Of a stretch of DNA of 64,000 nucleotides, positions 1,326-36,160 are shown piece after piece. Within the stretch, counting starts at the first letter, position 1, and every line of letters begins with the position of its first letter. The DNA lies in the IMG/VR virus record IMGVR_UViG_3300045003_000080, positions 32,001-96,000 of that record. One strand, given 5' to 3'. The stretch comes from a virus. Under the pieces are notes generated by a model. That model was given only the letters and a program-made list of their open reading frames with translations, made no database searches and was not told where the DNA came from. The translations under genes and the position numbers were made by a program.

Positions 1326-1973
1326 ATGGATGACTTTCCCCGCCTCGAACTACGCACCAAACGCCTCATCCTCACCACCGACGCCGCCCACCTGCTCGAA
1401 CTGGCCGAACTCGCACGCGCCGGCATCCACGACCCCGAAGTACAGCCCTTCAGCACCATGTGGACCGACGTCACCCCCGACGAGCGCCTCGAATCAGTCA
1501 TCGACTGGCACCGCACCCGACGCGAAACCTGGGACGAAAACGACTGGACCCTGCCGTTCTTCGTCCTGCACGCTGGCGCCGTCATCGGCACCCAATCCAT
1601 CAGCGCCGACAACTTCGCGATCCTGCGCACCGTACGCACCGGATCATGGCTCGGACAACGCCACCAGGGCCAAGGGTTCGGCACCGAAATGCGCACCGCC
1701 ATCCTGCACTTCTCGTTTGTCCTGCTCGGCGCCTACTACGCCATGACCAGCGCCCACGACAACAACGCCGCATCCAACGGGGTGTCACGGAAACTTGGCT
1801 ACCGGCACAACGGAATCAGCCGCGTCGTCGTACGGGGCGGCCCCGTCACCGTGCGGCACTACATCATGACGTACGCCGACTGGGAAGGCCGCGAATCGGA
1901 CATCGCCATCGAAGGCGACCTCAACGCGCTCACACGCGCATGCGGTGTCCCCCCCCACGGCACCCTACGATGA
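1326..1973 (+). CDS. GNAT acyltransferase, RimJ/RimL family (Rv0802c-like)
   Basis: GIHDP..PF..W, TGSWLGQRHQGQGFGTEMR, NAASNGVSRKLGY motifs. Confidence 0.9.
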   Translation: MDDFPRLELRTKRLILTTDAAHLLELAELARAGIHDPEVQPFSTMWTDVTPDERLESVIDWHRTRRETWDENDWTLPFFVLHAGAVIGTQSISADNFAILRTVRTGSWLGQRHQGQGFGTEMRTAILHFSFVLLGAYYAMTSAHDNNAASNGVSRKLGYRHNGISRVVVRGGPVTVRHYIMTYADWEGRESDIAIEGDLNALTRACGVPPHGTLR

Positions 1974-1977
1974 TCGT

Positions 1978-2238
1978 GTGCGCGTAGAACAACACCATTA
2001 CATCTCCACCGCCTGCCAACACGGCATCCACACCCGGTGCGCCCGCACCTGCAAATTCTGCGACGCACCCTGCCGATGCGGCTGCGACCACGACGAACGC
2101 GACGACGAGGAACTACATGAAGCGCTCGCCCGGTTCCTCTGGGAAAACGACGCCTGGAACGACCTGACCTCGCACCCGCGAGAACTCGCCGACCAGATCG
2201 TCGGGTTCCTGTGCCGCATCCCCCCGTCCTGCCGGTAG
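1978..2238 (+). CDS. Cys/His-rich hypothetical protein
   Basis: HYISTACQHGIHTRCARTCKFCDAPCRCGCDH; GTG 6 nt after TACGAT. Confidence 0.6.
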   Translation: MRVEQHHYISTACQHGIHTRCARTCKFCDAPCRCGCDHDERDDEELHEALARFLWENDAWNDLTSHPRELADQIVGFLCRIPPSCR

Positions 2239-2246
2239 GAGGATGC

Positions 2247-2438
2247 GTGCGCCTGATCGTCACCAACGGCGCCCAGGCAGTCGACATCACCGTCAAAGGC
2301 GGCGGCGTTAAAGCATTGATACGAGCCGAGAAGGTCGCGCGCCGACTCATGCGGCAATCCGCGAAGACGGCTGCCACCACCCAGCCGTTCGGGTTCACCG
2401 TCCGCTCCGACACCGCACTCGCCGACACCGACGAATAA
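2247..2438 (+). CDS. Small hypothetical protein
   Basis: AGGAGG RBS before GTG 2247. Confidence 0.6.
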   Translation: MRLIVTNGAQAVDITVKGGGVKALIRAEKVARRLMRQSAKTAATTQPFGFTVRSDTALADTDE

Positions 2439-2440
2439 GT

Positions 2441-2469
2441 GTGACGACCCCCGGGATTCGTGGTATAAG
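2441..2469 (+). promoter_or_regulatory. Promoter for peptide + tRNA operon
   Basis: GTGACG-N17-TATAAG with extended -10 TG. Confidence 0.55.
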
Positions 2470-2499
2470 AGTGGTGTCAGTTCCTTCCAGAGGAGCGCA

Positions 2500-2664
2500 G
2501 TGACACCACCCACCCCTACCGAGGCTGCCGTGATCACGCGGATCCCGGACGTGCTGGGGCAGCCCCTCGGCAAGCCGACGCCCGCCACTGCGGCGATCCG
2601 CGACAGGATCCTGCAGAAGAAAAGCACCGAAGTACCAGTCGCCGCCTTCCAATCGTCGATCTAG
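2500..2664 (+). CDS. fxsA: FxSxx-COOH (FxsA-like) peptide 1, 54 aa
   Basis: AGAGGAG RBS; MTPPTPTEAAVITRIPDVLGQPLGKPTPATAAIRDRILQKKSTEVPVAAFQSSI*; below ORF-track cutoff. Confidence 0.85.
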   Translation: MTPPTPTEAAVITRIPDVLGQPLGKPTPATAAIRDRILQKKSTEVPVAAFQSSI

Positions 2665-2672
2665 AGGTTGAC

Positions 2673-2852
2673 ATGTCAGCCGCCACCGAAACCCCCATCC
2701 CGTCGCAGGTCGTCGACCTGCGCCAAACGCCGCTCCGCCAACTCGTCAGCGACCGCGAACCCGGCAAAGCGGCCCGCGACGCAGTCGCACGAATCGCGCC
2801 CCCCGACCAGACATCAAAGGTCCCAGTCGCCGCCTTCAACTCATCCCTGTAG
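2673..2852 (+). CDS. fxsA: FxSxx-COOH (FxsA-like) peptide 2, 59 aa
   Basis: GAGG RBS; MSAATETPIPSQVVDLRQTPLRQLVSDREPGKAARDAVARIAPPDQTSKVPVAAFNSSL*; below ORF-track cutoff. Confidence 0.88.
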   Translation: MSAATETPIPSQVVDLRQTPLRQLVSDREPGKAARDAVARIAPPDQTSKVPVAAFNSSL

Positions 2853-2861
2853 GAGCCGCAC

Positions 2862-3068
2862 GTGACCACCCTCGACGAAACCCCCGTCGCCGCATCGTCG
2901 ACCGAAGAGATGTGGGGCACGCCGGAAACATGGCGAATGCCAGACGCGGGCGACACGCCTCTCGGCCAAGCTGGCACGGGAGAACAGCGTGACGCCGTCG
3001 CGCGACTCGTCCGGAAAGACAAGGGCAGCAGCGCCGTCCCGGTCGCCGCGTTCAACGCCTCACTGTAA
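2862..3068 (+). CDS. FxSxx-COOH-like peptide 3, 68 aa (FNASL variant)
   Basis: AGGAG RBS; ...MPDAGDTPLGQ...RDAVARLVRKDKGSSAVPVAAFNASL*. Confidence 0.8.
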   Translation: MTTLDETPVAASSTEEMWGTPETWRMPDAGDTPLGQAGTGEQRDAVARLVRKDKGSSAVPVAAFNASL

Positions 3069-3078
3069 ACAGCACAAC

Positions 3079-3152
3079 GGGCCTATAGCTCAACCCGGCA
3101 GAGCACCTGCTTTGCAAGCAGGGGGTTCGGGGTTCAACTCCCCGTGGGTCCA
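3079..3152 (+). tRNA. tRNA-Ala(TGC)
   Basis: G3:U70 pair, CCTGC-TTTGCAA-GCAGG arm. Confidence 0.95.
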
Positions 3153-3228
3153 CGGGACGGTGCGGCCACGCTCCGGGAGCAGACGCCGCGCAAGCGGCCC
3201 CACGAGCTGCTGAAATGTGGGTGGCAAC

Positions 3229-3303
3229 GCCCTGTTAGCTCAGCCGGCCGAGAGCGGCTCCCTCGTAAGGAGCAGGTCCGGGGTTCGACTCCCCGACGGG
3301 GCT
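3229..3303 (+). tRNA. tRNA-Thr(CGT)
   Basis: GCTCC-CTCGTAA-GGAGC arm, GGTTCGACT T loop. Confidence 0.93.
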
Positions 3304-3356
3304 CGTGGTACTGTAGGATTACATCAAGCGGTGAGGGCGAAAGCCCGGCCGCCCGG

Positions 3357-3430
3357 TGCGGGGTGGCGCAGCTCGGTAGCGCGAAGGGCCCATAACCCTT
3401 GTGTCGCAGGTTCAAATCCTGCCCCCGCCA
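3357..3430 (+). tRNA. Initiator tRNA-fMet(CAT), C33
   Basis: 1:72 mismatch, three G-C pairs closing loop CCCATAA. Confidence 0.9.
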
Positions 3431-3449
3431 CTAAGGCGCCGTCCCTCTT

Positions 3450-3523
3450 GGCCCGTGGGGATTCAACGCCGACAAAGCCTGAGGTCCGAACTCAGTGCGC
3501 GCCCCGCAAGGGGAAACGGGCCT
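3450..3523 (+). ncRNA. tRNA-like element (anticodon-like CCG, GNRA hairpin replacing T arm)
   Basis: 7-bp GGCCCGT/ACGGGCC stem, CTGAG-GTCCGAA-CTCAG arm, CCCC-GCAA-GGGG. Confidence 0.45.
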
Positions 3524-3529
3524 GCCAAA

Positions 3530-3604
3530 CGGAACGTGGGGTAGCCCGGCCGCCCGCCAGCTTTGGGAGCTGGTTCTACGCAGGTTCGAATCCTGCCGTT
3601 CCGA
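3530..3604 (+). tRNA. tRNA-Pro(TGG)
   Basis: CGGAACG/CGTTCCG acceptor, CCAGC-TTTGGGA-GCTGG arm. Confidence 0.93.
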
Positions 3605-3618
3605 CAACAACTTGATAT

Positions 3619-3693
3619 GGCCCTATAGCCCAATTGGCAGTAGGCGACGGTCTGAGGGGCCGTACAGTGCAGGTTCGAGTCCTGCTAGGGCCA
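3619..3693 (+). tRNA. tRNA-Leu(GAG), short variable arm
   Basis: ACGGT-CTGAGGG-GCCGT arm; GGCCCTA/TAGGGCC acceptor. Confidence 0.9.
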
Positions 3694-3694
3694 C

Positions 3695-3767
3695 GCTGAT
3701 GTGGCCCAGTCGGTAGGGCGTCTCCTCGCCATGGAGAAGGTCACGGGTTCGATCCCCGTCATCAGCT
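3695..3767 (+). tRNA. tRNA-Gly(GCC), C33
   Basis: TCTCC-TCGCCAT-GGAGA arm, U73. Confidence 0.9.
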
Positions 3768-3771
3768 CTAT

Positions 3772-3846
3772 GGTCCCGTGGAGCAGCTTGGAGTGCTCGA
3801 CTGCCCGTCAAGCAGTAGGTCGCGAGTTCGAATCTCGTCGGGACCG
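3772..3846 (+). tRNA. tRNA-Asp(GTC), C33
   Basis: ACTGC-CCGTCAA-GCAGT arm, G73. Confidence 0.92.
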
Positions 3847-3862
3847 CTCTACACTGGTTGAT

Positions 3863-4063
3863 ATGGCGAACTTTTTTCATCACGCTGGGGATGTCCTGCA
3901 CGAGGCCCTGCATTCGCTTGGCGACGAGTTCGACAAGGTGTTGGCGGAGCTTAGGCGCGCTGAGCAACCGGCTGTGCACGATGCGGAAGCGGCTGTTGGT
4001 GAGGCTGTGAAGGCTGCTGAGACTGTTGCAGAATCGGCAACTTCGGGTGTCGTCAACAAGTAG
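3863..4063 (+). CDS. Small helical hypothetical protein
   Basis: ATG 7 nt after TACACT; MANFFHHAGDVLHEAL... Confidence 0.6.
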   Translation: MANFFHHAGDVLHEALHSLGDEFDKVLAELRRAEQPAVHDAEAAVGEAVKAAETVAESATSGVVNK

Positions 4064-4085
4064 ACGCCATTAGTACTATGGCGCT

Positions 4086-4502
4086 ATGGGACCACTCTTC
4101 ACGGGTGACGTGCCCGTGCTACTCGACGTCGACCTTGACCCCGATCAACGGCAACTAGTTGCCAAGGTGATCGGCGACATGCCACCAGCCGATTGGTTGC
4201 GCGGGGTGATTCTGCGTGCCGCACTGTGGCAGGTAGCCGTCCGAGAGTTGCGCGAAGGCGACCCGCAACGCCACGACTGGACGTCGGAGAATCTGCCGAC
4301 GTGCCTTGTCGAGATCCTTGACGCCCAGGCGGGGAAGCTTCATTCGCCCGGTGGCGCGGTGCGCAGGTGTCTCGCGGATATCCTCAACGTGTACGACGGG
4401 ATGATGATCTACGACGACGGTGTTGCTGAGGCGCACGAAGAGATGTGGCGGGGGAGTCTGAGCACGAGCGAGTTCGTCGACGCGAAGGCGCGCCGGCCGT
4501 GA
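4086..4502 (+). CDS. Hypothetical protein
   Basis: ATG 6 nt after TACTAT; GTGA-coupled to next gene. Confidence 0.65.
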   Translation: MGPLFTGDVPVLLDVDLDPDQRQLVAKVIGDMPPADWLRGVILRAALWQVAVRELREGDPQRHDWTSENLPTCLVEILDAQAGKLHSPGGAVRRCLADILNVYDGMMIYDDGVAEAHEEMWRGSLSTSEFVDAKARRP

Positions 4503-5062
4503 GTGACGGCTTGTTGTTCGTCGGTGTCGACGGGGTGTTGAACCCTTGGGACGTGCCGCGAGGCCGCGAGCTGCCTGGTTATGAAACGTTCTACCGGTAT
4601 CGCGAGTTCAACCCGGGTGGTTATACCGCTCCTACGGTGTGGGGGCTTGGCCCGGTGCAACGTGGCGGTACGCGTGTGCGGTTGAACCGGGAACACGGCT
4701 GCATGTTGCGTGAGGTTGCGGAGCGGTGGAGTCTGGAGTTGGTGTGGGCGACGTGGTGGGGGGATGACGCGCCCCGGTTGATCGCGCCGGTGCTCGGGTT
4801 GCCGGAGATGCGGGTGGTGCCTCTTTATCCAGGCACGAACCGTCCTGGCGAGAATTGGAAGCGTTGGGCGGTGAACTCGTTCGCGGATGGTCGGCCTTTC
4901 GGGTGGTTGGATGACGAGTTCGGTGCCGGTGACTATGTGTGGGCGGCGAACCGGCAGTTGAAGAAATGCATTCCGACGTTCGTGTGGAATGTGGATCCCA
5001 GGGAGGGTTTGACGTGGCAGGCCGTTAAGATGGTCGACACGTACTTCTGGGGCCTGTCGTGA
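4499..5062 (+). CDS. HAD-family phosphatase (HAD_SAK-like), first Asp replaced by Gly
   Basis: LFVGVDGVLN, LVWATWW, WK, WLDDE, VDPREGLT motifs. Confidence 0.8.
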   Translation: MSDGLLFVGVDGVLNPWDVPRGRELPGYETFYRYREFNPGGYTAPTVWGLGPVQRGGTRVRLNREHGCMLREVAERWSLELVWATWWGDDAPRLIAPVLGLPEMRVVPLYPGTNRPGENWKRWAVNSFADGRPFGWLDDEFGAGDYVWAANRQLKKCIPTFVWNVDPREGLTWQAVKMVDTYFWGLS

Positions 5063-14560: not shown

Positions 14561-16084
14561 GTGACCGTCAACTATGGTGAACCGGACGAGTGGCGCACCT
14601 GGTCCAAAGAAGACAAAAAACTGTTCATCGAACGGTTGCGCGCGAAAGCGGCCGACCGCGACGAGCGCCCCTACTACCGGATGGCGCGGCCCAAGCAGCT
14701 GCCCCCCGACCACCCGCGCCACCACTTGCCGGACGCGAACGGGTTCTCGTGCGGCTGCGACGGGGTCGACGACGACTGGGTGATCTACCTGATCATGGCT
14801 GGTCGTGGCCTGGGCAAGACGTGGACGGGCGCGAACTGGCTGGTCGCGCAGGCGCTTCGGTTCCCGAAAACGGAGTGGGGTGTGTTCGCCCCGACGTTCG
14901 GCGACGTCCGCAAGGTGTGTATCGAAGGCACTTCCGGGATCCGGGCGGCGTTGCGCGAGGGTGAGGAGAAGCAGTACCGGCGCAACGAGCTGCAGATCGT
15001 CCTGTCCAACGACAGCGTGATCTACGGGTATTCGGCTGACCAGCCCGAGCGTGTGCGTGGCGCGAACTTGTCAGGGGCCTGGTGTGATGAAATCGGGAGT
15101 TGGCGGTATTACGAAACATGGTATGAGGGTTTAGTCCCGGCCCTGCGTATCGGCGAGAAGCCCCGGGTCCTGGCCACCACCACCCCCCGCCCCACCCGGC
15201 TGCTGCGCGACCTGATGGGCCGGGGCGACGGCACCGTCCACGTCACACGCGGATCAACCTGGGAAAACGCCGCCAACCTGTCCGGCACCGCCCTCGCTGA
15301 GCTGAAACGCCGCTACGAGGGCACCCGGCTGGGCCGACAGGAACTCGAAGGCGAACTACTCGAAGACATCGAAGGCGCCCTCTGGTCACGCAGCATGATC
15401 GACGAAGCCAGGGTGCGACAGGAAGACGTCCCCCAGCTGCTGCGCGTCGTCGTCGGCGTCGACCCGGCCGTCACCGGCTCGGAAACCAGCGACGAGACCG
15501 GGATCGTCGTCGTCGGCGAAAGCCTCGACGGCCACGCCTATGTCGTCGGCGACTACTCCGTGAAAGGCTCCCCGGACACGGCGATGCGCCGGGCGGTCGC
15601 CGCCTACCGCGAACACCAGGCCGACTGCCTGGTCGCCGAGGTCAACCAGGGCGGGGACTACATCGGGACTTTACTTCGCACTGTTGACCCGAACATCCCG
15701 TACCGGCAGGTGCGCGCCATGCGCAACAAGCAGGTGCGCGCGGAACCCGTCGCCGCACTGTACGAACAGGGCCGGGTCCACCACGTCGGGGTGTTCCCGG
15801 AACTCGAAGACCAGATGGTGACCTGGCTGCCCGGCAGCCGCCAGTCCCCGGACCGCGCCGACGCGTTGGTGTGGGCGTGTAGCGAGTTGCGCGGCCTGGG
15901 CACCGGCGACTGGCACGACGCGTACGGGATCGTCATCTGCGAGGGCTGCGACCACCGCTTCATGAGCGAACTGCACCCGCACGTGTGCCCCAGGTGCCGC
16001 ACCCGGTGGACCCAGCCCGACCCGCCACCGCCACCCCAGCAGCAGGAACCCATCGACGAGGGGAACGTGTCCTATGGCGGCTGA
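14561..16084 (+). CDS. terL: Terminase large subunit
   Basis: Walker A MAGRGLGKT, Walker B WCDE, TTTP, nuclease VGVDPA and SPDRADA; C-terminal CxxC..CxxC. Confidence 0.97.
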   Translation: MTVNYGEPDEWRTWSKEDKKLFIERLRAKAADRDERPYYRMARPKQLPPDHPRHHLPDANGFSCGCDGVDDDWVIYLIMAGRGLGKTWTGANWLVAQALRFPKTEWGVFAPTFGDVRKVCIEGTSGIRAALREGEEKQYRRNELQIVLSNDSVIYGYSADQPERVRGANLSGAWCDEIGSWRYYETWYEGLVPALRIGEKPRVLATTTPRPTRLLRDLMGRGDGTVHVTRGSTWENAANLSGTALAELKRRYEGTRLGRQELEGELLEDIEGALWSRSMIDEARVRQEDVPQLLRVVVGVDPAVTGSETSDETGIVVVGESLDGHAYVVGDYSVKGSPDTAMRRAVAAYREHQADCLVAEVNQGGDYIGTLLRTVDPNIPYRQVRAMRNKQVRAEPVAALYEQGRVHHVGVFPELEDQMVTWLPGSRQSPDRADALVWACSELRGLGTGDWHDAYGIVICEGCDHRFMSELHPHVCPRCRTRWTQPDPPPPPQQQEPIDEGNVSYGG

Positions 16085-17609: not shown

Positions 17610-20600
17610 ATGGCGGGGAATGCTCGTGCTGTGGCGCGTGCCGCCCGCGCCGTGGGAAGCGGTGTCGCGTCGGGCAACGCGCCGGGCGGTTTCGGGGGAG
17701 TAGCCAGCACGGTGGGCACCCTGGGCACCACCCAGAATCCGTCGCCCCTGATCAGCTCGTATCAGCAGTGGACACAGGGGCGCCCTTACGGGATCGGGCT
17801 GCCCCGCGACCCGGGCACGTTCTTGGCCGGCGCGTTCGGACCGTTGACGCCGATCGAGCCGGTGGGTATCGACGCCCCGGACCCGAGCACGGGGCGGCCT
17901 GAGCCGCGCAGGTATACGTATTTGCCCGGCTGGAACATGCCGGTCGGCGAACCGGGCTCCGAGGGTCTCAAGCTCGCCCCATTCGCCGCTTTGCGTTCCC
18001 TCGCCGACCAGTACAGCGTCGCCCGCGCGTGTATCAATGTTCGCAAGCAGGAGATTCTGGGCTTGGAGTGGGACATCATGCCCACCCGCGACGCCGAGAA
18101 GAAAATGCGTGGACGCCCGTCCCTACACAAGGATTTCCAGGAGCGCCGCGCCGAAGCAGTCGCTTTCTTCCAGAACCCTGACCCGGGCAAGTACCGGGGC
18201 TACTCGGCGTGGCTGTCGGCGCTGCTCGAAGACGTGTTCGTGATCGACGCCCTGACGGTCTACTTGCAGCCGACCCGTAAGAAGGGCAAGGGGCTGCTCG
18301 GCTCCGACTTGGGTGCGCTGTGCCTGATCGACGGCTCGACGGCGCGCCCCCTGCTGGATATCCAGGGTGGTACGCCTCAGCCTCCGAATCCGGCGATTCA
18401 GATTTACAACTACGGTGTGCCCAGGGTCGATCTGATGACGGCGATCGACGGCGCCGAATACAACGAGATGAAAGAATCTCTGCTGGCCGAGTACCGCTCC
18501 GACCAGGTGCTTTACCTGCCGTACACGCCACGCACCTGGACGCCTTACGGCTTTTCGCTGGTGGAGAAGGCGCTGGTGCCGATCATCGCCGGATTGCAGC
18601 GCCAGCAGTACCAGCTCGGCTACTTCTCAGAGGGTTCAATTCCAGGAGTGTTCATCAGTTCGGGTGACCCGAACGCGACCCCGAACCAACTGCGCACCTT
18701 GCAAGATGCTTTAAATGCAATGGCTGGCGACCCGATGTGGAAGCACCGCATCATCGTCATCCCAGGTGGCAGCCGCATCGAACCGATGCGCCCGACACCG
18801 CTCGCCGACGCGTTCGACGAGATTGTCATGAACCAGGTACTCATGGCTTTCGATGTGATGCCGATGGAACTCGGCATCACCCCCCAGGTCGCCGTCACAC
18901 CCAGCCCTGGTGCGGCGAACCAGATGGCGAAAGCATCCGCGCAGGTCAACCAGCGTAAAGCCCTGCGCCCCCTGCTGATGTGGCTCAAGCAGACCCTGTT
19001 CGACTACGTCCTCCAGGTCGTATGTGGACAGGATGATATGCAGTTCATGTGGGCCGGGCTCGAAGAGGGCCAGGAACGCGAATCGTTGATCGACAACCTC
19101 ATCGACCAGGTCGGCCACGGCATGATGAGCATCGACGAAGCGCGCGTCGAGATCGGGGAACAGCCCTGGGGTCTGCCCCTCACCTCCGACCCGGTGTGGG
19201 CGACACAGATGGGCGTCGTCCCACTCGGCTCGATCGACCCGCTCACCGGGCGCCCGGCCGCAATGCAACCGATGCTCCCCGGGCAGGCCGGCCAGGCCGG
19301 TGGCACGGGGGCACCCGGCATCCCAGCGCCGGGCGGCGTCAACCAGATCCAGGCAGGCAACATCGTCGCGTCGCAGAAAGAGCCGTCGCCGGCGAAACCC
19401 GTCGCCGACGCACAGGACCAGGCGCGCGCCAACCAGGCCACCGGCACCCCGTCGCACACGCAAAACGCCAACACCCCGATGAAACCGACGAATGTCAAAG
19501 CCGCGATGCGGGAACTGTCCCTGATCAAGGCCCGGCTGGAGAAAGGGCGCAGCGTCGACGGGTGGCGGTACGACTTCGTGCCCCCGCATGTCGCAGCCGA
19601 ACTGGCCGAGAACATGCAGTCGATGGACTGGGTCGAAGCGATCGGCAAAGCGCGTGCCCGGTTGGCCGGGATCGCGGACGCGGACCGGCGCGACCAGGTC
19701 GTGGCACCCATCGCGAACCGGGTCGCCTCGCGGCTCGGCGCCCTGGCGCGCGGCGTGAAGGACGGCTCCGAAAGCCGGATCGCGATGATCGACGACGGCA
19801 CGCAGGTCATGCGCGACGGTCTTCGCGAAGCGATCCTCGCCGGCGCGCGCGACGCGTTGTCGCGGCCACGCGCGCACTCGACGAAGGCCGACGATGACGA
19901 CGACGAAGCCGAACGGGACATCGACGCGATCCTGTCCGGCCCGTACGGCGACTACCTGACCGGCCTGGCCGATCAGCGCGCAGGAGACCAAACCAACTTC
20001 CTGACAGGGCTACTGCAGGATGTGCTGGTCGCCGGGCTGATCCAGGACATCCTCGACGCGCTCGGCTGGCGGTTTGACCTGTACGGCGACCAGGCGTACG
20101 AGGCGTACAACATGGGCTACGGCCTGTCACTGTTCGCCGACAATCCCGACCAGTGGATTCAATGGCAGACCACCAGCGCCCAGCCGTGTGTGCTGTGCGC
20201 GGCCCGTGACGGCAACACGTACAACGCCGACACGCTGCCCGGCTGGCCCGGCGATGGCGGATTCGGTGGCACGTCCGTGTTGTCGGCGTCGGGCACCGGG
20301 ATCTGCATGGGTGGTCCACGCTGCAAATGCATCCTGATCGCCGTCTCCGACGGTCAGGTCGCGGTCGGCACGAACACGCAGGGCGACGAGGAGCCGGGCA
20401 CGCTCGGCCGGGTGATCGCGGCAGCAGTGCGCGCCTACCAGGCCGGGACCCGTGCGTCGAAGGGTGCGCAGGAGATCACCCACCATGATCACGGCGACCA
20501 CCACACGCCGGACATCACCCACCACGTGTACGCGTACCTCGCCCGCCACTACCCGGCCAGCGAACTGGAATGGGTGAAGAAAGCGGTCTGGCGCGGCCCG

Positions 20601-20993
20601 AGCCATGTGCCACTCGAAGACATCAGCATGGCGCACCGTGAAGGCGGCGCCCGCAACCCCGACAAGGTGCGGCTGATCGCCCACGCGATCGCCGACGGGC
20701 ACAAACTCGACCCCATCGTCCTGGTAAGCGAACCCGGCCACGACCAGTATCAAATCGCCGACGGCTGGCACCGCACAGCAGCCATCAAACAGTCGGGCGG
20801 CAAGAGCGCACTCGCGTTCATCGGGAAACTGCCCGACGACTCGTTCAGCGCAGCCGCGATGGGCCGATCCAAGCTCAACAAGGGCACGGACGTGGTCGTC
20901 GACCTGCGCAGCACGACGGTGATGAGCGACGCGGACATCGCGGAGTTGGCACGCAAGATCGGCAAACGCCTGGGAGACGCATCAGGAGGCTGA
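17610..20993 (+). CDS. Portal protein fused to MuF-like and ParB/Srx-like domains
   Basis: Portal core (YGFSLVEKAL, YFSEGSIPG, SIDEARVEIG); W.T....C..C.ARDG...C.G..RCKC; PIVLV...IADGWHR. Confidence 0.9.
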   Translation: MAGNARAVARAARAVGSGVASGNAPGGFGGVASTVGTLGTTQNPSPLISSYQQWTQGRPYGIGLPRDPGTFLAGAFGPLTPIEPVGIDAPDPSTGRPEPRRYTYLPGWNMPVGEPGSEGLKLAPFAALRSLADQYSVARACINVRKQEILGLEWDIMPTRDAEKKMRGRPSLHKDFQERRAEAVAFFQNPDPGKYRGYSAWLSALLEDVFVIDALTVYLQPTRKKGKGLLGSDLGALCLIDGSTARPLLDIQGGTPQPPNPAIQIYNYGVPRVDLMTAIDGAEYNEMKESLLAEYRSDQVLYLPYTPRTWTPYGFSLVEKALVPIIAGLQRQQYQLGYFSEGSIPGVFISSGDPNATPNQLRTLQDALNAMAGDPMWKHRIIVIPGGSRIEPMRPTPLADAFDEIVMNQVLMAFDVMPMELGITPQVAVTPSPGAANQMAKASAQVNQRKALRPLLMWLKQTLFDYVLQVVCGQDDMQFMWAGLEEGQERESLIDNLIDQVGHGMMSIDEARVEIGEQPWGLPLTSDPVWATQMGVVPLGSIDPLTGRPAAMQPMLPGQAGQAGGTGAPGIPAPGGVNQIQAGNIVASQKEPSPAKPVADAQDQARANQATGTPSHTQNANTPMKPTNVKAAMRELSLIKARLEKGRSVDGWRYDFVPPHVAAELAENMQSMDWVEAIGKARARLAGIADADRRDQVVAPIANRVASRLGALARGVKDGSESRIAMIDDGTQVMRDGLREAILAGARDALSRPRAHSTKADDDDDEAERDIDAILSGPYGDYLTGLADQRAGDQTNFLTGLLQDVLVAGLIQDILDALGWRFDLYGDQAYEAYNMGYGLSLFADNPDQWIQWQTTSAQPCVLCAARDGNTYNADTLPGWPGDGGFGGTSVLSASGTGICMGGPRCKCILIAVSDGQVAVGTNTQGDEEPGTLGRVIAAAVRAYQAGTRASKGAQEITHHDHGDHHTPDITHHVYAYLARHYPASELEWVKKAVWRGPSHVPLEDISMAHREGGARNPDKVRLIAHAIADGHKLDPIVLVSEPGHDQYQIADGWHRTAAIKQSGGKSALAFIGKLPDDSFSAAAMGRSKLNKGTDVVVDLRSTTVMSDADIAELARKIGKRLGDASGG

Positions 20994-32507: not shown

Positions 32508-32799
32508 GAGCAGCCACCCGATCGCGGTCGAGTGCTGGACCCGGGAAAGCCTGTGGACCAGGTTCGGGCTCACGTTGGAGGCGGCGTGGGCGCTGTGGAC
32601 CCCGGGCCGGTTCCGCGACGTGATGCGGTTCTTGGAGATCCAGGCCAACGTACAGAACTCCCGTTCCTCTTCGTCGACGGACCCTGACGTCACTCAGGCG
32701 ACATTCGAGTATCTGCGCCGACAACGCGATGAAGCGGGGGGCGGCGACGGTGGCGACCGACGAGATCACGATCCTGCTGCTGCTGGAAGCGGTGGATAA
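32470..32799 (+). CDS. Frameshift extension of tail chaperone (+1 frame)
   Basis: Open +1 frame with no RBS of its own overlaps the chaperone end; candidate shift GAG TTT CGG at 32466-32474. Confidence 0.6.
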   Translation, partial: FGAALKRAAHSGRSSHPIAVECWTRESLWTRFGLTLEAAWALWTPGRFRDVMRFLEIQANVQNSRSSSSTDPDVTQATFEYLRRQRDEAGGGDGGDRRDHDPAAAGSGG

Positions 32800-35700
32800 A
32801 GCCTCCGGTGTCATCGGCAAGATCGGGCAGGCGTTCACGAATCTCGGCGACACGCTGCAGAAGGCGTCGGACATCTCCGCGCGCACGGCTGAGGAGCAGG
32901 CGGCCCTCGACGATCAGGTCACGGCGTCGACTGCCGCCTGGACTGAGGCGACGAATCTGCAGACCGACGCGCAGATGCGGCTGAGGGCCGCGAACGAAGC
33001 GGTCCAGGAAGCCCAGGCCCAGGCGGTCGAGTGGGCGCGCATCCAAATGGACACCGAAAAGGAACTCGCAGGTGTCACCAGGGCCCTGACGGAGGAGGAG
33101 CAGTTCTCCGCGAAGGTCGTCGAGGAGTCGTTCGCTGCCGCGACCGAAGCGGTCAAGGCTGCGACGACGGTGCAGATCGAGGCGCTCGACGCGTTGCAGG
33201 CGGCGCAGACAGAAGTCGCGATCAGGTCGCAGGAGATGGCGGCTGCCGAAAGCGCCGCGTCGAGGGAGACCGGGCTGGGCGCTGCCGCGCTCGGGGGGCT
33301 CAAGGTCGCGGCTGCGACGACCGCGATCGGGGTCGGCGCCGTCGCGTACATGAGTACGAAGGCTGCCGCGAACTTCCAGTCGATGACAACCACCTTGGCC
33401 ACCTCAGGTGGCGAGATGGACAAGACGGGCGCGCTGCTGGCGACCGTGCGCAACGGCATCCTGAACCTCGCGCAGTCCACGGGTACCGCCACCGATCAGC
33501 TCACCAAGGGCATGTACATGATCGGCAGCGCCGGGTTCACCGGCGCGAAGGGCTTGGAGGTGTTGCGCGCAGCTGCTGAGGGCGCGAAAGCGGAGAACTC
33601 GGACCTGGGCACCGTTGCCAACGCATTAACAACGGTGATGCTGGACTACGGCAACCAGATCGACAAAGGCCCTGTCCAGGCGATGAACCTGATGATTGCC
33701 ACGGTGCAGCGCGGCAAGATGACCACACAGGATTTCGCTGGGAGCCTCGCGTCGATCCTCCCGATCGCGAACTCGGCTGGGCTCAAGTTCGCCGAGGTCG
33801 GTGGCGCCCTGGCGACCATGACGGCGTCGGGTATGACAGCGCAGCGCGCCACCGATGACCTTTCGAATTCGGTCAGGGCCCTGCAGAAGCCTAACAACGT
33901 CGCCATCCAGTTGATGCAGCAGATGGGCATTGACAGCAACAAGCTGGTGATGGACCTGGGCAAGAACGGCCTGACCGGGACCCTCAATACCCTGTTGCAG
34001 GCGATCGCCGCGCACACCAAGGGTGGCCAGGTTCTGCTGAACACCTGGTACACGTCCGCGTCGGCTGCTGCTGACCTGAAAACCATGATCGCGTCGATGA
34101 CCCCGGCCATGCAGGCTCTGGCGAACGGGTTCCAAACCGGTTCGCTGACCGCGAAGCAGTTCCGTGACGACCTGTACCAGCTTTCCCCGCGACAGCGCGA
34201 TGTGATGATGCAGTTCGAGTCGCTCGCGAACAAGGCCGACGGATTCAACCAGCAACTCAAATTGGGCAACCCGGCTGCAATCACATTCAATAACGCGCTC
34301 GGGACGATGATGGGCGGGGCGACCGGGCTCAACACGGCTCTCATTCTGTCGGCGAATAACGGCAAAACGTTCGCGAACAATGTTGCGGCGATCGGCGCTG
34401 CCGCGCAGAACACCGGCACGGATGTCAACGGTTGGAGTCTGATTCAGCAAAACTTCAACCAGCAGCTGTCGCAGCTGAAGGAGACGGTGCAGGTCGCGGC
34501 GATCCGGATCGGTACGGCGTTGCTGCCGGCGGTGACGAAGATCGTCGAGTGGATCGCGAAGGTGATCCAGCCGATCGCGGAGTGGATCAGCCATCACCAG
34601 AAGCTCTCGGCCGTCATCATGATCGCCGTTGGGGTGCTCTCCACGCTGCTGGTGATGCTGATCAGCGCCGTGAAAATTTTCAAGGAAGTCAAGCTCGCCA
34701 TCGAAGGGCTCGGAGTCGCGCTCGATTTCCTCGCGGACAACCCAATCATCCTCATCATTGCCGCGATTGCGGTCGCCGCGTATCTGATCATCACTCACTG
34801 GTCGACGGTGAAGAAATGGCTTGAGGAGTTCTGGGGCTGGATCGTCAAGGTCGCGAAGATCGCCGCCCATTATTTTGTCCAGGCGTGGAATGAGTCGGTC
34901 GAGACGCTCAAGCGCGTCTGGGGCGATATCAAGAGGATATGGGACGACACGGGCGGTAAAGCGGTCACGTGGATCAAGGACCAGTTCGAGAAGATCGCCG
35001 AGCCGATTAAAAAGGAATGGGACCACATCGTTTCCGACCTGGAGTCGATCTGGGGTTCGCTCACCGAAATCTGGAACGGAACCGGCGGGAAACTCGTCCA
35101 CCTTATCTCGGCGCACTGGAAAGCGATCTCGGATTTCACGAAACTGATCTGGCAGGGCATCTACACGATGATCAAGGTCCAAGTCGACATCATCGTGCAG
35201 ATCCTGAAAGTCGCGTGGGAGCTTATCTCAAGCGCCGTGAAAGTCCAGTGGGACCTGATCAAGGGGATCCTGAAAACAGCGTGGGATCTCATCTACGGCC
35301 TCATCAAGGGCACCCTCGATGTGATCATCGGCGTGTTGAAAGCCGCGTGGGATATCGTCGTGGGGATTTTCCGGGCCGTGTGGGACATCATCAAGGTCGT
35401 TATCAACACGGCCCTGGACTACATTAAAGACGTCCTGAAGTTGTTCGCGGACCTCGTGACCGGCCAGTGGGGCAAACTCTGGAACGACGTGAAGAAGATC
35501 TTCACGGACCTGTGGAACAACATCAAGGATTTCTTCGTCAACATCTGGCACGATATCGAGGACACCGCGTCGAGCGCGGTCAGCAATGTGTGGAACGGGT
35601 TCGTCTCCGGCACGAAGGCCGCCCTCGGCGGTATTACGAGCGCGATCACCGACGTCTACAACACGATTAAGAACTTTTTCGCCGACGCCTACAACTGGCT

Positions 35701-36160
35701 GATCGACGCCGGCAAGGCGATCCTGAATGGTTTCGTCGATGGCGCGAAGTCCGTGTGGAACGACGTGACATCGTTTTTCGGCGGGTTCGGCGACTGGATT
35801 GCGAAGCACAAGGGCCCGATCGAGGTCGACATGAAGCTGCTGGTCCCACACGGCCAGGCGATCATGAAGGGGTTGATGGACGGGTTGCAGGCGCAAATGC
35901 CCGCGCTGCAGGCGAAACTGGGCCAGGTCACCTCCACCGTGACCGCGTCGGTCAACCCGGTGCTGCGCACCTCCGGCGCGCTGTCCGGGTTCGGGTCGGC
36001 GCCCACGTCGGCGTCGACGCAGCCACAGATCGTGATCACGAACGATCTGCGCGAGTCGCGGATCATGTCGGACCGGGACATGGACATGCTCACGCAGAAG
36101 ATCGGCAATCGGCTCGCGACGCAGCTGCTGCCTGCCGGTGGTGTACGCATCAGGTCATAG
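32750..36160 (+). CDS. Tape measure protein
   Basis: TP901-like core and 11-aa Trp-periodic repeats. Confidence 0.97.
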   Translation: MATDEITILLLLEAVDKASGVIGKIGQAFTNLGDTLQKASDISARTAEEQAALDDQVTASTAAWTEATNLQTDAQMRLRAANEAVQEAQAQAVEWARIQMDTEKELAGVTRALTEEEQFSAKVVEESFAAATEAVKAATTVQIEALDALQAAQTEVAIRSQEMAAAESAASRETGLGAAALGGLKVAAATTAIGVGAVAYMSTKAAANFQSMTTTLATSGGEMDKTGALLATVRNGILNLAQSTGTATDQLTKGMYMIGSAGFTGAKGLEVLRAAAEGAKAENSDLGTVANALTTVMLDYGNQIDKGPVQAMNLMIATVQRGKMTTQDFAGSLASILPIANSAGLKFAEVGGALATMTASGMTAQRATDDLSNSVRALQKPNNVAIQLMQQMGIDSNKLVMDLGKNGLTGTLNTLLQAIAAHTKGGQVLLNTWYTSASAAADLKTMIASMTPAMQALANGFQTGSLTAKQFRDDLYQLSPRQRDVMMQFESLANKADGFNQQLKLGNPAAITFNNALGTMMGGATGLNTALILSANNGKTFANNVAAIGAAAQNTGTDVNGWSLIQQNFNQQLSQLKETVQVAAIRIGTALLPAVTKIVEWIAKVIQPIAEWISHHQKLSAVIMIAVGVLSTLLVMLISAVKIFKEVKLAIEGLGVALDFLADNPIILIIAAIAVAAYLIITHWSTVKKWLEEFWGWIVKVAKIAAHYFVQAWNESVETLKRVWGDIKRIWDDTGGKAVTWIKDQFEKIAEPIKKEWDHIVSDLESIWGSLTEIWNGTGGKLVHLISAHWKAISDFTKLIWQGIYTMIKVQVDIIVQILKVAWELISSAVKVQWDLIKGILKTAWDLIYGLIKGTLDVIIGVLKAAWDIVVGIFRAVWDIIKVVINTALDYIKDVLKLFADLVTGQWGKLWNDVKKIFTDLWNNIKDFFVNIWHDIEDTASSAVSNVWNGFVSGTKAALGGITSAITDVYNTIKNFFADAYNWLIDAGKAILNGFVDGAKSVWNDVTSFFGGFGDWIAKHKGPIEVDMKLLVPHGQAIMKGLMDGLQAQMPALQAKLGQVTSTVTASVNPVLRTSGALSGFGSAPTSASTQPQIVITNDLRESRIMSDRDMDMLTQKIGNRLATQLLPAGGVRIRS

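Follow-up and report, generated by a model that had tools for sequence, protein, structure and literature searches.

Many filamentous actinomycetes possess an Fxs locus, of which the chemistry of the product (a Phe-Ser cyclophane) is known rather than the biology. According to passages of a review (PMC11002830) and of a further article (PMC11499958), MscB, an enzyme of the FxsB family, joins C4 of Phe to the beta carbon of Ser within the motif F-x-S and thereby forms the cyclophane. In its main-text passages, a preprint on predicted TIR-ParA systems (bioRxiv 10.64898/2026.10.19.760177) predicts that FxsC and FxsT constitute a TIR-ParA "apoptosis" module whose action is perhaps coupled to the FxsAB peptide, proposes that the FxsAB product may have an antiviral effect or may diffuse as an alert signal in multicellular actinomycetes, and contains no mention of phage-encoded FxsA or of a counter-measure. 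A literature search for phage-borne FxsA, with supplementary files and subscription papers outside its reach, found no description either, and the terms FxsC, FxsT, or FxsAB turned up in this one preprint only. Here we analyze three small genes of a phage that code for putative precursors of this kind. They are located in a stretch of 64,000 nucleotides (nt; the window), which comprises bases 32001–96000 of the IMG/VR virus record IMGVR_UViG_3300045003_000080, and had been regarded in a preliminary description, made from the sequence alone, as three tandem FxsA-like precursors of RiPPs (peptides made by the ribosome and modified post-translationally). Novel in the present case are the array of three diverged genes and the 88% match, leader included, of one predicted peptide to the predicted FxsA that heads a complete fxsABCT locus.

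The three short tandem open reading frames (ORFs), each preceded by a ribosome-binding site (RBS), and the C-termini given for them in the preliminary description were confirmed at the following positions of the window:

2500–2664, + strand: pep1, GTG start, 54 amino acids (aa), C-terminus VPVAAFQSSI
2673–2852, + strand: pep2, ATG start, 59 aa, C-terminus VPVAAFNSSL
2862–3068, + strand: pep3, GTG start, 68 aa, C-terminus VPVAAFNASL
2439–2499, + strand: intergenic leader of 61 nt, which carries the pep1 RBS GAGGAG and a weak promoter-like element recognized by eye (TGTGAC-17 nt-TATAAG)

The RBSs (GAGGAG, AGAGG, and AGGAG for pep1, pep2, and pep3, respectively) are placed 6–7 nt before the start codons, the intergenic gaps measure 8 nt (pep1–pep2) and 9 nt (pep2–pep3), and the stop codon of pep3 is followed after 10 nt by a tRNA-Ala gene. 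The location inside a tRNA island was also confirmed, with three tRNA genes at 474–707 and seven at 3079–3847. The claim that the genes are transcribed from one promoter, in contrast, was not confirmed, as a sigma-70 promoter scan of positions 1900–4200 yielded 0 sites and only the element recognized by eye is left. The leader motifs D-x4-PL and A-x(2-3)-R(I/L) were found in 3/3 peptides despite the divergent DNA that had already been remarked upon; pairwise identity among the three copies is 38–39% on the amino acid and 56–61% on the nucleotide level. Invariant columns of the alignment are D17, P22, L23, R34, D35, and the core VPVAAF, whose codons vary synonymously between the copies while its protein sequence is unvarying. 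Among the 2389 stop-to-stop ORFs of the phage, pep1–3 are the only ones that end in AAFx[S/A]xx.

The affiliation of the peptides was assessed with two profile hidden Markov models (HMMs). The NCBIfam model TIGR04268 (FxSxx-COOH) matched pep1 with 21.1 bits (expect value, E, 2.6e-4), pep2 with 21.1 bits (E 2.7e-4; aligned to model positions 1–44 of 44), and pep3 with 17.6 bits (E 3.5e-3), and a six-frame search of the entire 119,829-bp genome gave matches at these three genes only (3 matches among 7 candidates scored). Hardly any other NCBIfam model was matched by the three peptides. This model is weak for the clade in question: the FxsA of an Actinocrinis metagenome-assembled genome (MAG), which is encoded directly before an FxsB of 537 bits, has no match at E ≤ 0.001, and one of five viral homologs exceeds the curated cut-off, with 41.3 bits. 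A second HMM was constructed from 10 cellular peptides whose genes adjoin fxsB, leaving out the close homolog of pep1 and one unpublished genome (G047), and was run on all of the aforementioned stop-to-stop ORFs, which have a length of at least 25 aa. It ranked pep2 first (41.4 bits, E 2e-11), followed by pep1 (34.2 bits, E 3.6e-9) and pep3 (30.5 bits, E 4.9e-8), whereas the next-best phage ORF reached 8.9 bits (E 0.29). The earlier assignment to the FxsA family is thus borne out by matches to TIGR04268, although these are below its cut-off, and by 30.5–41.4 bits in the second model, and on the basis of homology pep1–3 can be firmly placed among the precursors of the FxsA family.

The ends of pep1 (FQSSI) and pep2 (FNSSL) conform to F-x-S-x-x-COOH, whereas pep3 (FNASL) carries an Ala in place of the Ser to which the family owes its name. 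Since the FNASL core also occurs in 4/11 of the cellular FxsB-linked peptides tallied, including that of the second fxs locus of the Actinocrinis MAG, the Ala variant of pep3 is within the natural range; indeed, the core sequences of all three phage peptides are found among cellular FxsB-linked peptides. With 13.8 bits (E 0.063) against the SjiA subfamily model NF040585, pep2 stays below the cut-off of 75 bits, and pep1 and pep3 had no match to this model. Scans of pep1–3 against Pfam and PHROGs assigned no family and gave only a spurious hit of PF21139 on pep3 (E 0.027). For pep2 a precomputed Pfam label (PF27839) exists, a family missing from our own Pfam scan, and tblastn of pep2 against deposited phages yielded no match.

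That no maturase is encoded in the window, as had been stated before, holds for the whole complete phage genome. Searches of this genome found no FxsB, no FxsT, no HExxH hydroxylase, no radical SAM domain at E ≤ 1 (the control was positive in 14/14 genomes), and no FxsC N-terminal domain (positive control: 3 matches in the Actinocrinis MAG), and FxsB, FxsC, and FxsT of the MAG had no tblastn match in it. A check of the rest of the genome for fxsB, which the preliminary description had recommended, and for fxsC and fxsT therefore revealed none. Two outcomes that the preliminary description had named as speaking against it, a lack of HMM matches and cognate fxs genes elsewhere in the element, thus failed to appear. 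Cellular loci are organized differently. A search of 151 genomes of the Catenulisporales, the order of the MAG, gave matches in 13 of them, and 10/11 of the peptide-bearing cellular loci have an adjoining fxsB (9/10 without the unpublished genome G047), the remaining locus stopping at a contig edge; matches at L034, L035, and L037 were located within ORFs of 399–890 aa with no FxsA-like peptide and were left out of this count. The phage peptides are orphan members of the FxsA family, without the usual gene neighborhood of that family. A separate observation concerns a short metagenome contig (L039), on which an fxsA-like gene (366–545) is directly followed by an fxsC gene (801–1049; 66% identical to FxsC of the MAG) with no fxsB in between. 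This arrangement hints that FxsA may be tied to the TIR component and not to the maturase alone.

When 5.8 billion proteins were searched with a profile, 9 out of 53 candidates were retained; among these were pep1–3 themselves and a set of proteins 83–88% identical to pep1. The pep1 cluster contains WP_326887919.1 from the Actinocrinis sp. MAG and another member on a 434-kb contig, and a second assembly (a 67.5-kb contig) carries identical pep1 and pep3. The fxs locus of the Actinocrinis MAG that is headed by the homolog of pep1 is composed as follows:

L004:1158–1325: fxsA, directly upstream of fxsB
L004:1285–3810: fxsB (TIGR04269, 537 bits), with an additional aKG-HExxH hydroxylase domain
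L004:3990–5321: fxsC (FxsC_Nterm, 177 bits; FxsC_Cterm, 127 bits; Pfam TIR_2)
L004:5305–9240: fxsT, with KGGVGR ParA ATPase, TIR_2, NB-ARC, and TPR (FxSxx_TPR, 978 bits)

The features ascribed to these proteins in the preliminary description, a TIR-like FxsC and an FxsT with TPR and NTPase parts, agree with this locus, where FxsC is a TIR protein and FxsT combines ParA, TIR, NB-ARC, and TPR; the ParA part of FxsT moreover matched the PADLOC candidate system PDC-M28B (82.5 bits). The predicted protein pep1 and the FxsA of this locus share 88% amino acid identity overall and 87% within the leader alone. On the DNA level the identity is 86% over 157 nt, and the similarity ends at the ORF boundaries. 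The ratio of nonsynonymous to synonymous substitution rates (dN/dS) is 0.23 at a dS of 0.38. Judged from these comparisons, pep1 is a host-derived copy, and the substitution pattern characterizes it as an old capture kept under purifying selection. Actinocrinis, a member of the Actinospicaceae (Catenulisporales), or a relative of it would be the likeliest host.

The same MAG contains a second FxsB locus (L005, corresponding to G001:C38; FxsB with 546 bits) whose FxsA ends in VLVAAFNASL. The last 8 residues of this FxsA match those of pep3, but the leaders are unrelated. This second locus also harbors two adjoining genes with an FxsC N-terminal domain (151 and 148 bits), and the leader of its FxsA is unrelated to that of the first locus. 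The earlier proposal that the phage peptides are diversified to cover several host variants is weakly supported by these data: pep1 does match the FxsA of the first locus over its full length (88%), but pep3 has just its last 8 residues in common with the FxsA of the second one, and among all sequences collected none exceeds 49% identity to pep2 or pep3.

Orphan fxsA genes are not confined to this phage. Four exact DNA-pattern scans of IMG/VR, based on the core plus the stop codon, retrieved 11 + 2 + 14 + 7 = 34 loci, and our cellular HMM (E ≤ 1e-3) recognized the peptides at 19 of them, a number that is a lower bound because the patterns cover few core variants. The other 15/34 were chance matches; six of the 11 loci from the first scan were dropped due to low G + C content or a position inside long ORFs, and nine of the 23 from the other three scans because the HMM did not match. 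The survey of viral genomes for orphan FxsA that had been suggested earlier thus added 19 IMG/VR records, of which 0/19 contained FxsB, the FxsC N-terminal domain, or FxsT, with a completeness of at least 90% in 9/19. Most of these records have one copy and a tandem pair exists in L044 and L052/L058, but a three-copy array was not present among the other loci collected. A tandem FxsA pair with a tRNA nearby was also found on a short metagenome contig (L042). As a tRNA gene lies within 613 nt in 4/19 loci, placement in a tRNA island is recurrent but not general. The strongest such case among the other viral records is L058 (91,445 bp), where a tandem FxsA pair borders on 26 tRNA genes arrayed within 7.6 kb. 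Of the other records with FxsA-like genes, two carry the classification provirus. In tblastx comparisons of the viral loci with the phage, which otherwise gave mostly sum-statistic noise, only L012 shared other genes (44% over 181 aa at the genome ends). This lack of clear similarity outside the peptide gene, L012 excepted, hints at several independent captures. An alignment-based search of IMG/VR yielded 71 pattern stretches with 0 confirmed at E ≤ 1e-3, the peptides being too short for that confirmation step, and a scan of viral sequences for the host FxsB gave 2 pattern matches with 0 confirmed.

The carrier of the three genes is a tailed phage (Caudoviricetes) with a complete genome and terminal repeats. 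The source record has a size of 119,829 bp, direct terminal repeats (DTR), a CheckV completeness of 100%, a G + C fraction of 0.65, and 19 tRNA genes. The features that define the carrier and its tRNA island are the following, to which tail fibre and spike genes in the window have to be added:

14561–16081: terminase large subunit (window annotation)
17610–20990: portal (window annotation)
32729–36157: tape measure (window annotation)
474–707, + strand: 3 tRNA genes (Tyr, Cys, Leu; ARAGORN), the upstream edge of the accessory island
3079–3847, + strand: array of 7 tRNA genes (Ala, Thr, Met, Pro, Leu, Gly, Asp; ARAGORN), beginning 10 nt past the pep3 stop
G000:C1:2473–2757, - strand: large serine recombinase (25.6 bits, within a 539-aa ORF; outside the window)
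G000:C1:5230–5766, + strand: tyrosine integrase (100 bits; outside the window)

We rejected an origin of the element from a plasmid or cellular DNA, against which the DTR and the genes for terminase, portal, and tape measure speak. Both recombinase genes are located near the left end of the phage genome, an unusual pairing for a 120-kb DTR genome with 19 tRNAs. The immediate left neighbor of the peptide genes, a 75-aa ORF (2211–2438, + strand), matches phrog_23672, a family without assigned function (E 4.8e-6); as this match identifies a conserved phage gene, the left flank of the block would be phage and not host DNA. A gene for a GNAT acetyltransferase (1326–1973, + strand; PF13302, 52.7 bits) precedes the FxsA block by about 500 nt and could be an accessory or host-takeover gene of the same island. 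Just past the tRNA array, a 205-aa ORF (4445–5062, + strand) scores 26.1 bits, slightly less than the cut-off of 27.5, against PF18143, the HAD domain found in RNA-repair proteins of the "Swiss Army Knife" type, and together with the 19 phage tRNAs it hints at an island for tRNA repair or replacement directed against host anticodon nucleases. When window positions 2000–5000 were compared with deposited phages by megablast, nothing but 42 nt of tRNA-Ala matched, in 4 records of Synechococcus phages.

Taken together, these data lead us to favor, with moderate confidence, the explanation that the three ORFs are phage-borne, host-derived FxsA triceptide precursors, kept without their modifying enzyme, which would mimic the precursor in a host Fxs module and most likely silence this module. 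Since the leader and core of a host substrate were kept without any enzyme, the phage would have to rely on the FxsB of its host, and it probably supplies the host Fxs system with imitations of the native peptide. Given the 87% leader identity of pep1 to a native substrate, the phage peptides may be bound or processed by a component of this system. In the proposed sequence of events, pep1–3 would be translated from the tight three-gene operon after infection or in a lysogen, recognized by host FxsB owing to the conserved motifs of their leaders (D-x4-PL, RD, A-x-x-R-I/L), and cyclized by this enzyme at F-x-S/A. The products or their precursors might then engage those parts of the host system that handle the peptide, namely FxsB and most likely also the TPR sensor of FxsT. 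TPR domains commonly bind free C-terminal motifs, which would make that of FxsT a natural reader of the invariant -COOH end. In this manner the phage could gain control over the TIR/STAND module, which would most likely be silenced by supplying host FxsA or by out-competing it, a mode of precursor mimicry analogous to phage-made antitoxin mimics, and the three diverged paralogs may provide a higher dose and a broader range of FxsB and FxsT variants served. The selective value of the peptides would most likely consist in steering the adjacent TIR/STAND module, and the decoy or anti-defense role that the preliminary description had assigned to them is plausible. A more specific version is tentative. 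According to it, modified FxsA could be the ligand by which the TIR-STAND suicide module of FxsC and FxsT is kept off (or on), and actinophages might have captured the precursor gene repeatedly so that the radical SAM enzyme of the host makes a counter-signal for the phage, with the three paralogs acting as a small broad-spectrum set directed at different variants of FxsB and FxsT.

Several points weigh against precursor mimicry. On the side of the peptides, pep1–3 miss the curated cut-off of TIGR04268 (28 bits). At E ≤ 1e-3, pep2 had no relative but itself among 1.84 billion representatives, and a metagenome scan for pep3 gave 596 pattern matches with 0 confirmed. The best identity among all sequences collected was 49% for pep2 and 40–44% for pep3, with leaders that have no close cellular counterpart. 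The dS of 0.38 indicates that the capture of pep1 was not recent, the purifying selection measured for it falls partly on the host branch, and the Actinocrinis MAG is the nearest relative sampled, not the host itself. As to the host system, the FxsC of the MAG had no match in PADLOC, and the view of Fxs as a defense system is a comparative-genomics prediction from the main-text passages of the aforementioned preprint, which also state that FxsC and FxsT "remain functionally uncharacterized" (bioRxiv 10.64898/2026.10.19.760177). Furthermore, the presence of a tyrosine integrase and a large serine recombinase suggests a temperate lifestyle, and lysogenic conversion would fit the same facts.

Lysogenic conversion, the alternative that survives best, is less likely than precursor mimicry. 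It assumes that the phage is temperate and that the peptide genes are morons, by which a prophage supplies extra or variant FxsA to the lysogen, whose own FxsB would then make more or a different triceptide and protect both lysogen and prophage from other phages instead of disarming the host. The recombinases (the integrase with 100 bits), the position of the genes in an accessory island with tRNAs and the GNAT acetyltransferase, away from replication and structural genes, and the two FxsA-bearing records classed as proviruses would all be consistent with such a role, as would the antiviral or alert function proposed for the FxsAB product in passages of the preprint (bioRxiv 10.64898/2026.10.19.760177). 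However, the host already has an fxsA gene at each locus, so that a gain from extra copies is hard to see, and a 120-kb DTR genome with 19 tRNAs is atypical of a quiescent prophage.

It is unlikely that the phage proteins are independent of Fxs, in which case they would act unmodified on another target and resemble FxsA by ancestry alone. The lack of a maturase in the phage and the distance of the pep2 and pep3 leaders from any sampled cellular FxsA could be explained in this way, but the family-wide leader positions and the exact VPVAAF-x-S/A-x-x-COOH end were kept in three copies that are otherwise 38–39% identical, as selection for recognition by the Fxs machinery would lead one to expect. 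Even less probable is a role in phage signaling, with host FxsB maturing the peptides into a diffusible signal that either serves an arbitrium-like decision or jams a host alert. The occurrence of several sequence-distinct peptides per phage, the integrases, and the suggestion, made in passages of the preprint, that the modified peptide may be a diffusible signal in multicellular actinomycetes (bioRxiv 10.64898/2026.10.19.760177) speak in its favor, but it is speculative; no receptor, exporter, or leader protease was noticed in the phage, and FxsT, with its TPR part, is absent from it. Least probable of all, a neutral passenger, picked up from a host chromosome and functionless in the phage, would agree with the host origin of pep1 and the tendency of accessory islands to gather foreign DNA, but is disfavored by the dN/dS of 0.23 at a dS of 0.38, the trimming of the similarity exactly to the ORF, three intact copies with RBSs and a spacing of 8–9 nt, identical pep1 and pep3 in a second assembly, and orphan fxsA genes in 19 other viral records.

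The repeated carriage of the precursor gene alone by phages, together with the close match of pep1, in its leader as well, to an FxsA encoded at the head of a TIR/STAND locus, is independent genomic evidence for the weight of this peptide in the conflict between phage and host. The three natural peptide variants moreover offer a simple experimental handle, as an fxsABCT locus can be provided with them in trans. If precursor mimicry is true, it would represent a counter-defense that depends on a maturation enzyme of the host, with a virus completing a RiPP pathway across genomes. The tentative ligand-capture version would, if true, be the first case of RiPP-precursor mimicry as counter-defense, and in the case of lysogenic conversion phages would diversify the peptide output of their hosts.

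A comparison with described systems further delimits what may be expected of this locus. The minviopeptin pathway provides a case in which, according to passages of the respective article, a triceptide is further modified by the NAD+-using enzyme MicD, an ADP-ribosyltransferase (ART; PMC12912966). In contrast to FxsC, MicD is an ART and not a TIR protein, its organism is Mucilaginibacter, and the words Fxs, TIR, and phage do not appear in the article (PMC12912966). This pathway shows that enzymes which use NAD+ and are encoded next to a cyclophane synthase can have a tailoring function, so that FxsC, too, might tailor the peptide rather than kill the cell. With the FxsA/FxsB (MscB) triceptides (TIGR04268 and TIGR04269), the phage peptides share the leader motifs and the VPVAAF-x-S/A-x-x-COOH core. 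They differ from cellular FxsA by their phage carrier, by the three tandem diverged copies, by the absence of FxsB, FxsC, FxsT, and the HExxH hydroxylase, and by scores under the curated cut-off. Likewise, the host locus of the pep1 homolog has exactly the architecture of the predicted TIR-ParA systems (FxsC with TIR; FxsT with ParA, TIR, NB-ARC, and TPR), whereas the phage holds the peptide component only.

Phage-made mimics of labile host inhibitors, such as Dmd of phage T4 and phage pseudo-ToxI, counter abortive infection by toxin-antitoxin systems. The logic proposed here would be the same, a phage copy of a small host component that quiets a suicide module. However, the FxsA mimic differs from Dmd and pseudo-ToxI in being a RiPP precursor that would need a host enzyme, and the inhibition of FxsC/FxsT by FxsA is only proposed. 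With regard to the division of labor between precursors and enzyme, the closest parallel is found in the prochlorosins, where many ProcA precursors, encoded remote from the maturase, are served by the single enzyme ProcM. The phage genes similarly code for several diverged precursors with a conserved leader that would be served by one enzyme in trans, but in this case precursors and enzyme would be split between the genomes of a virus and its host.

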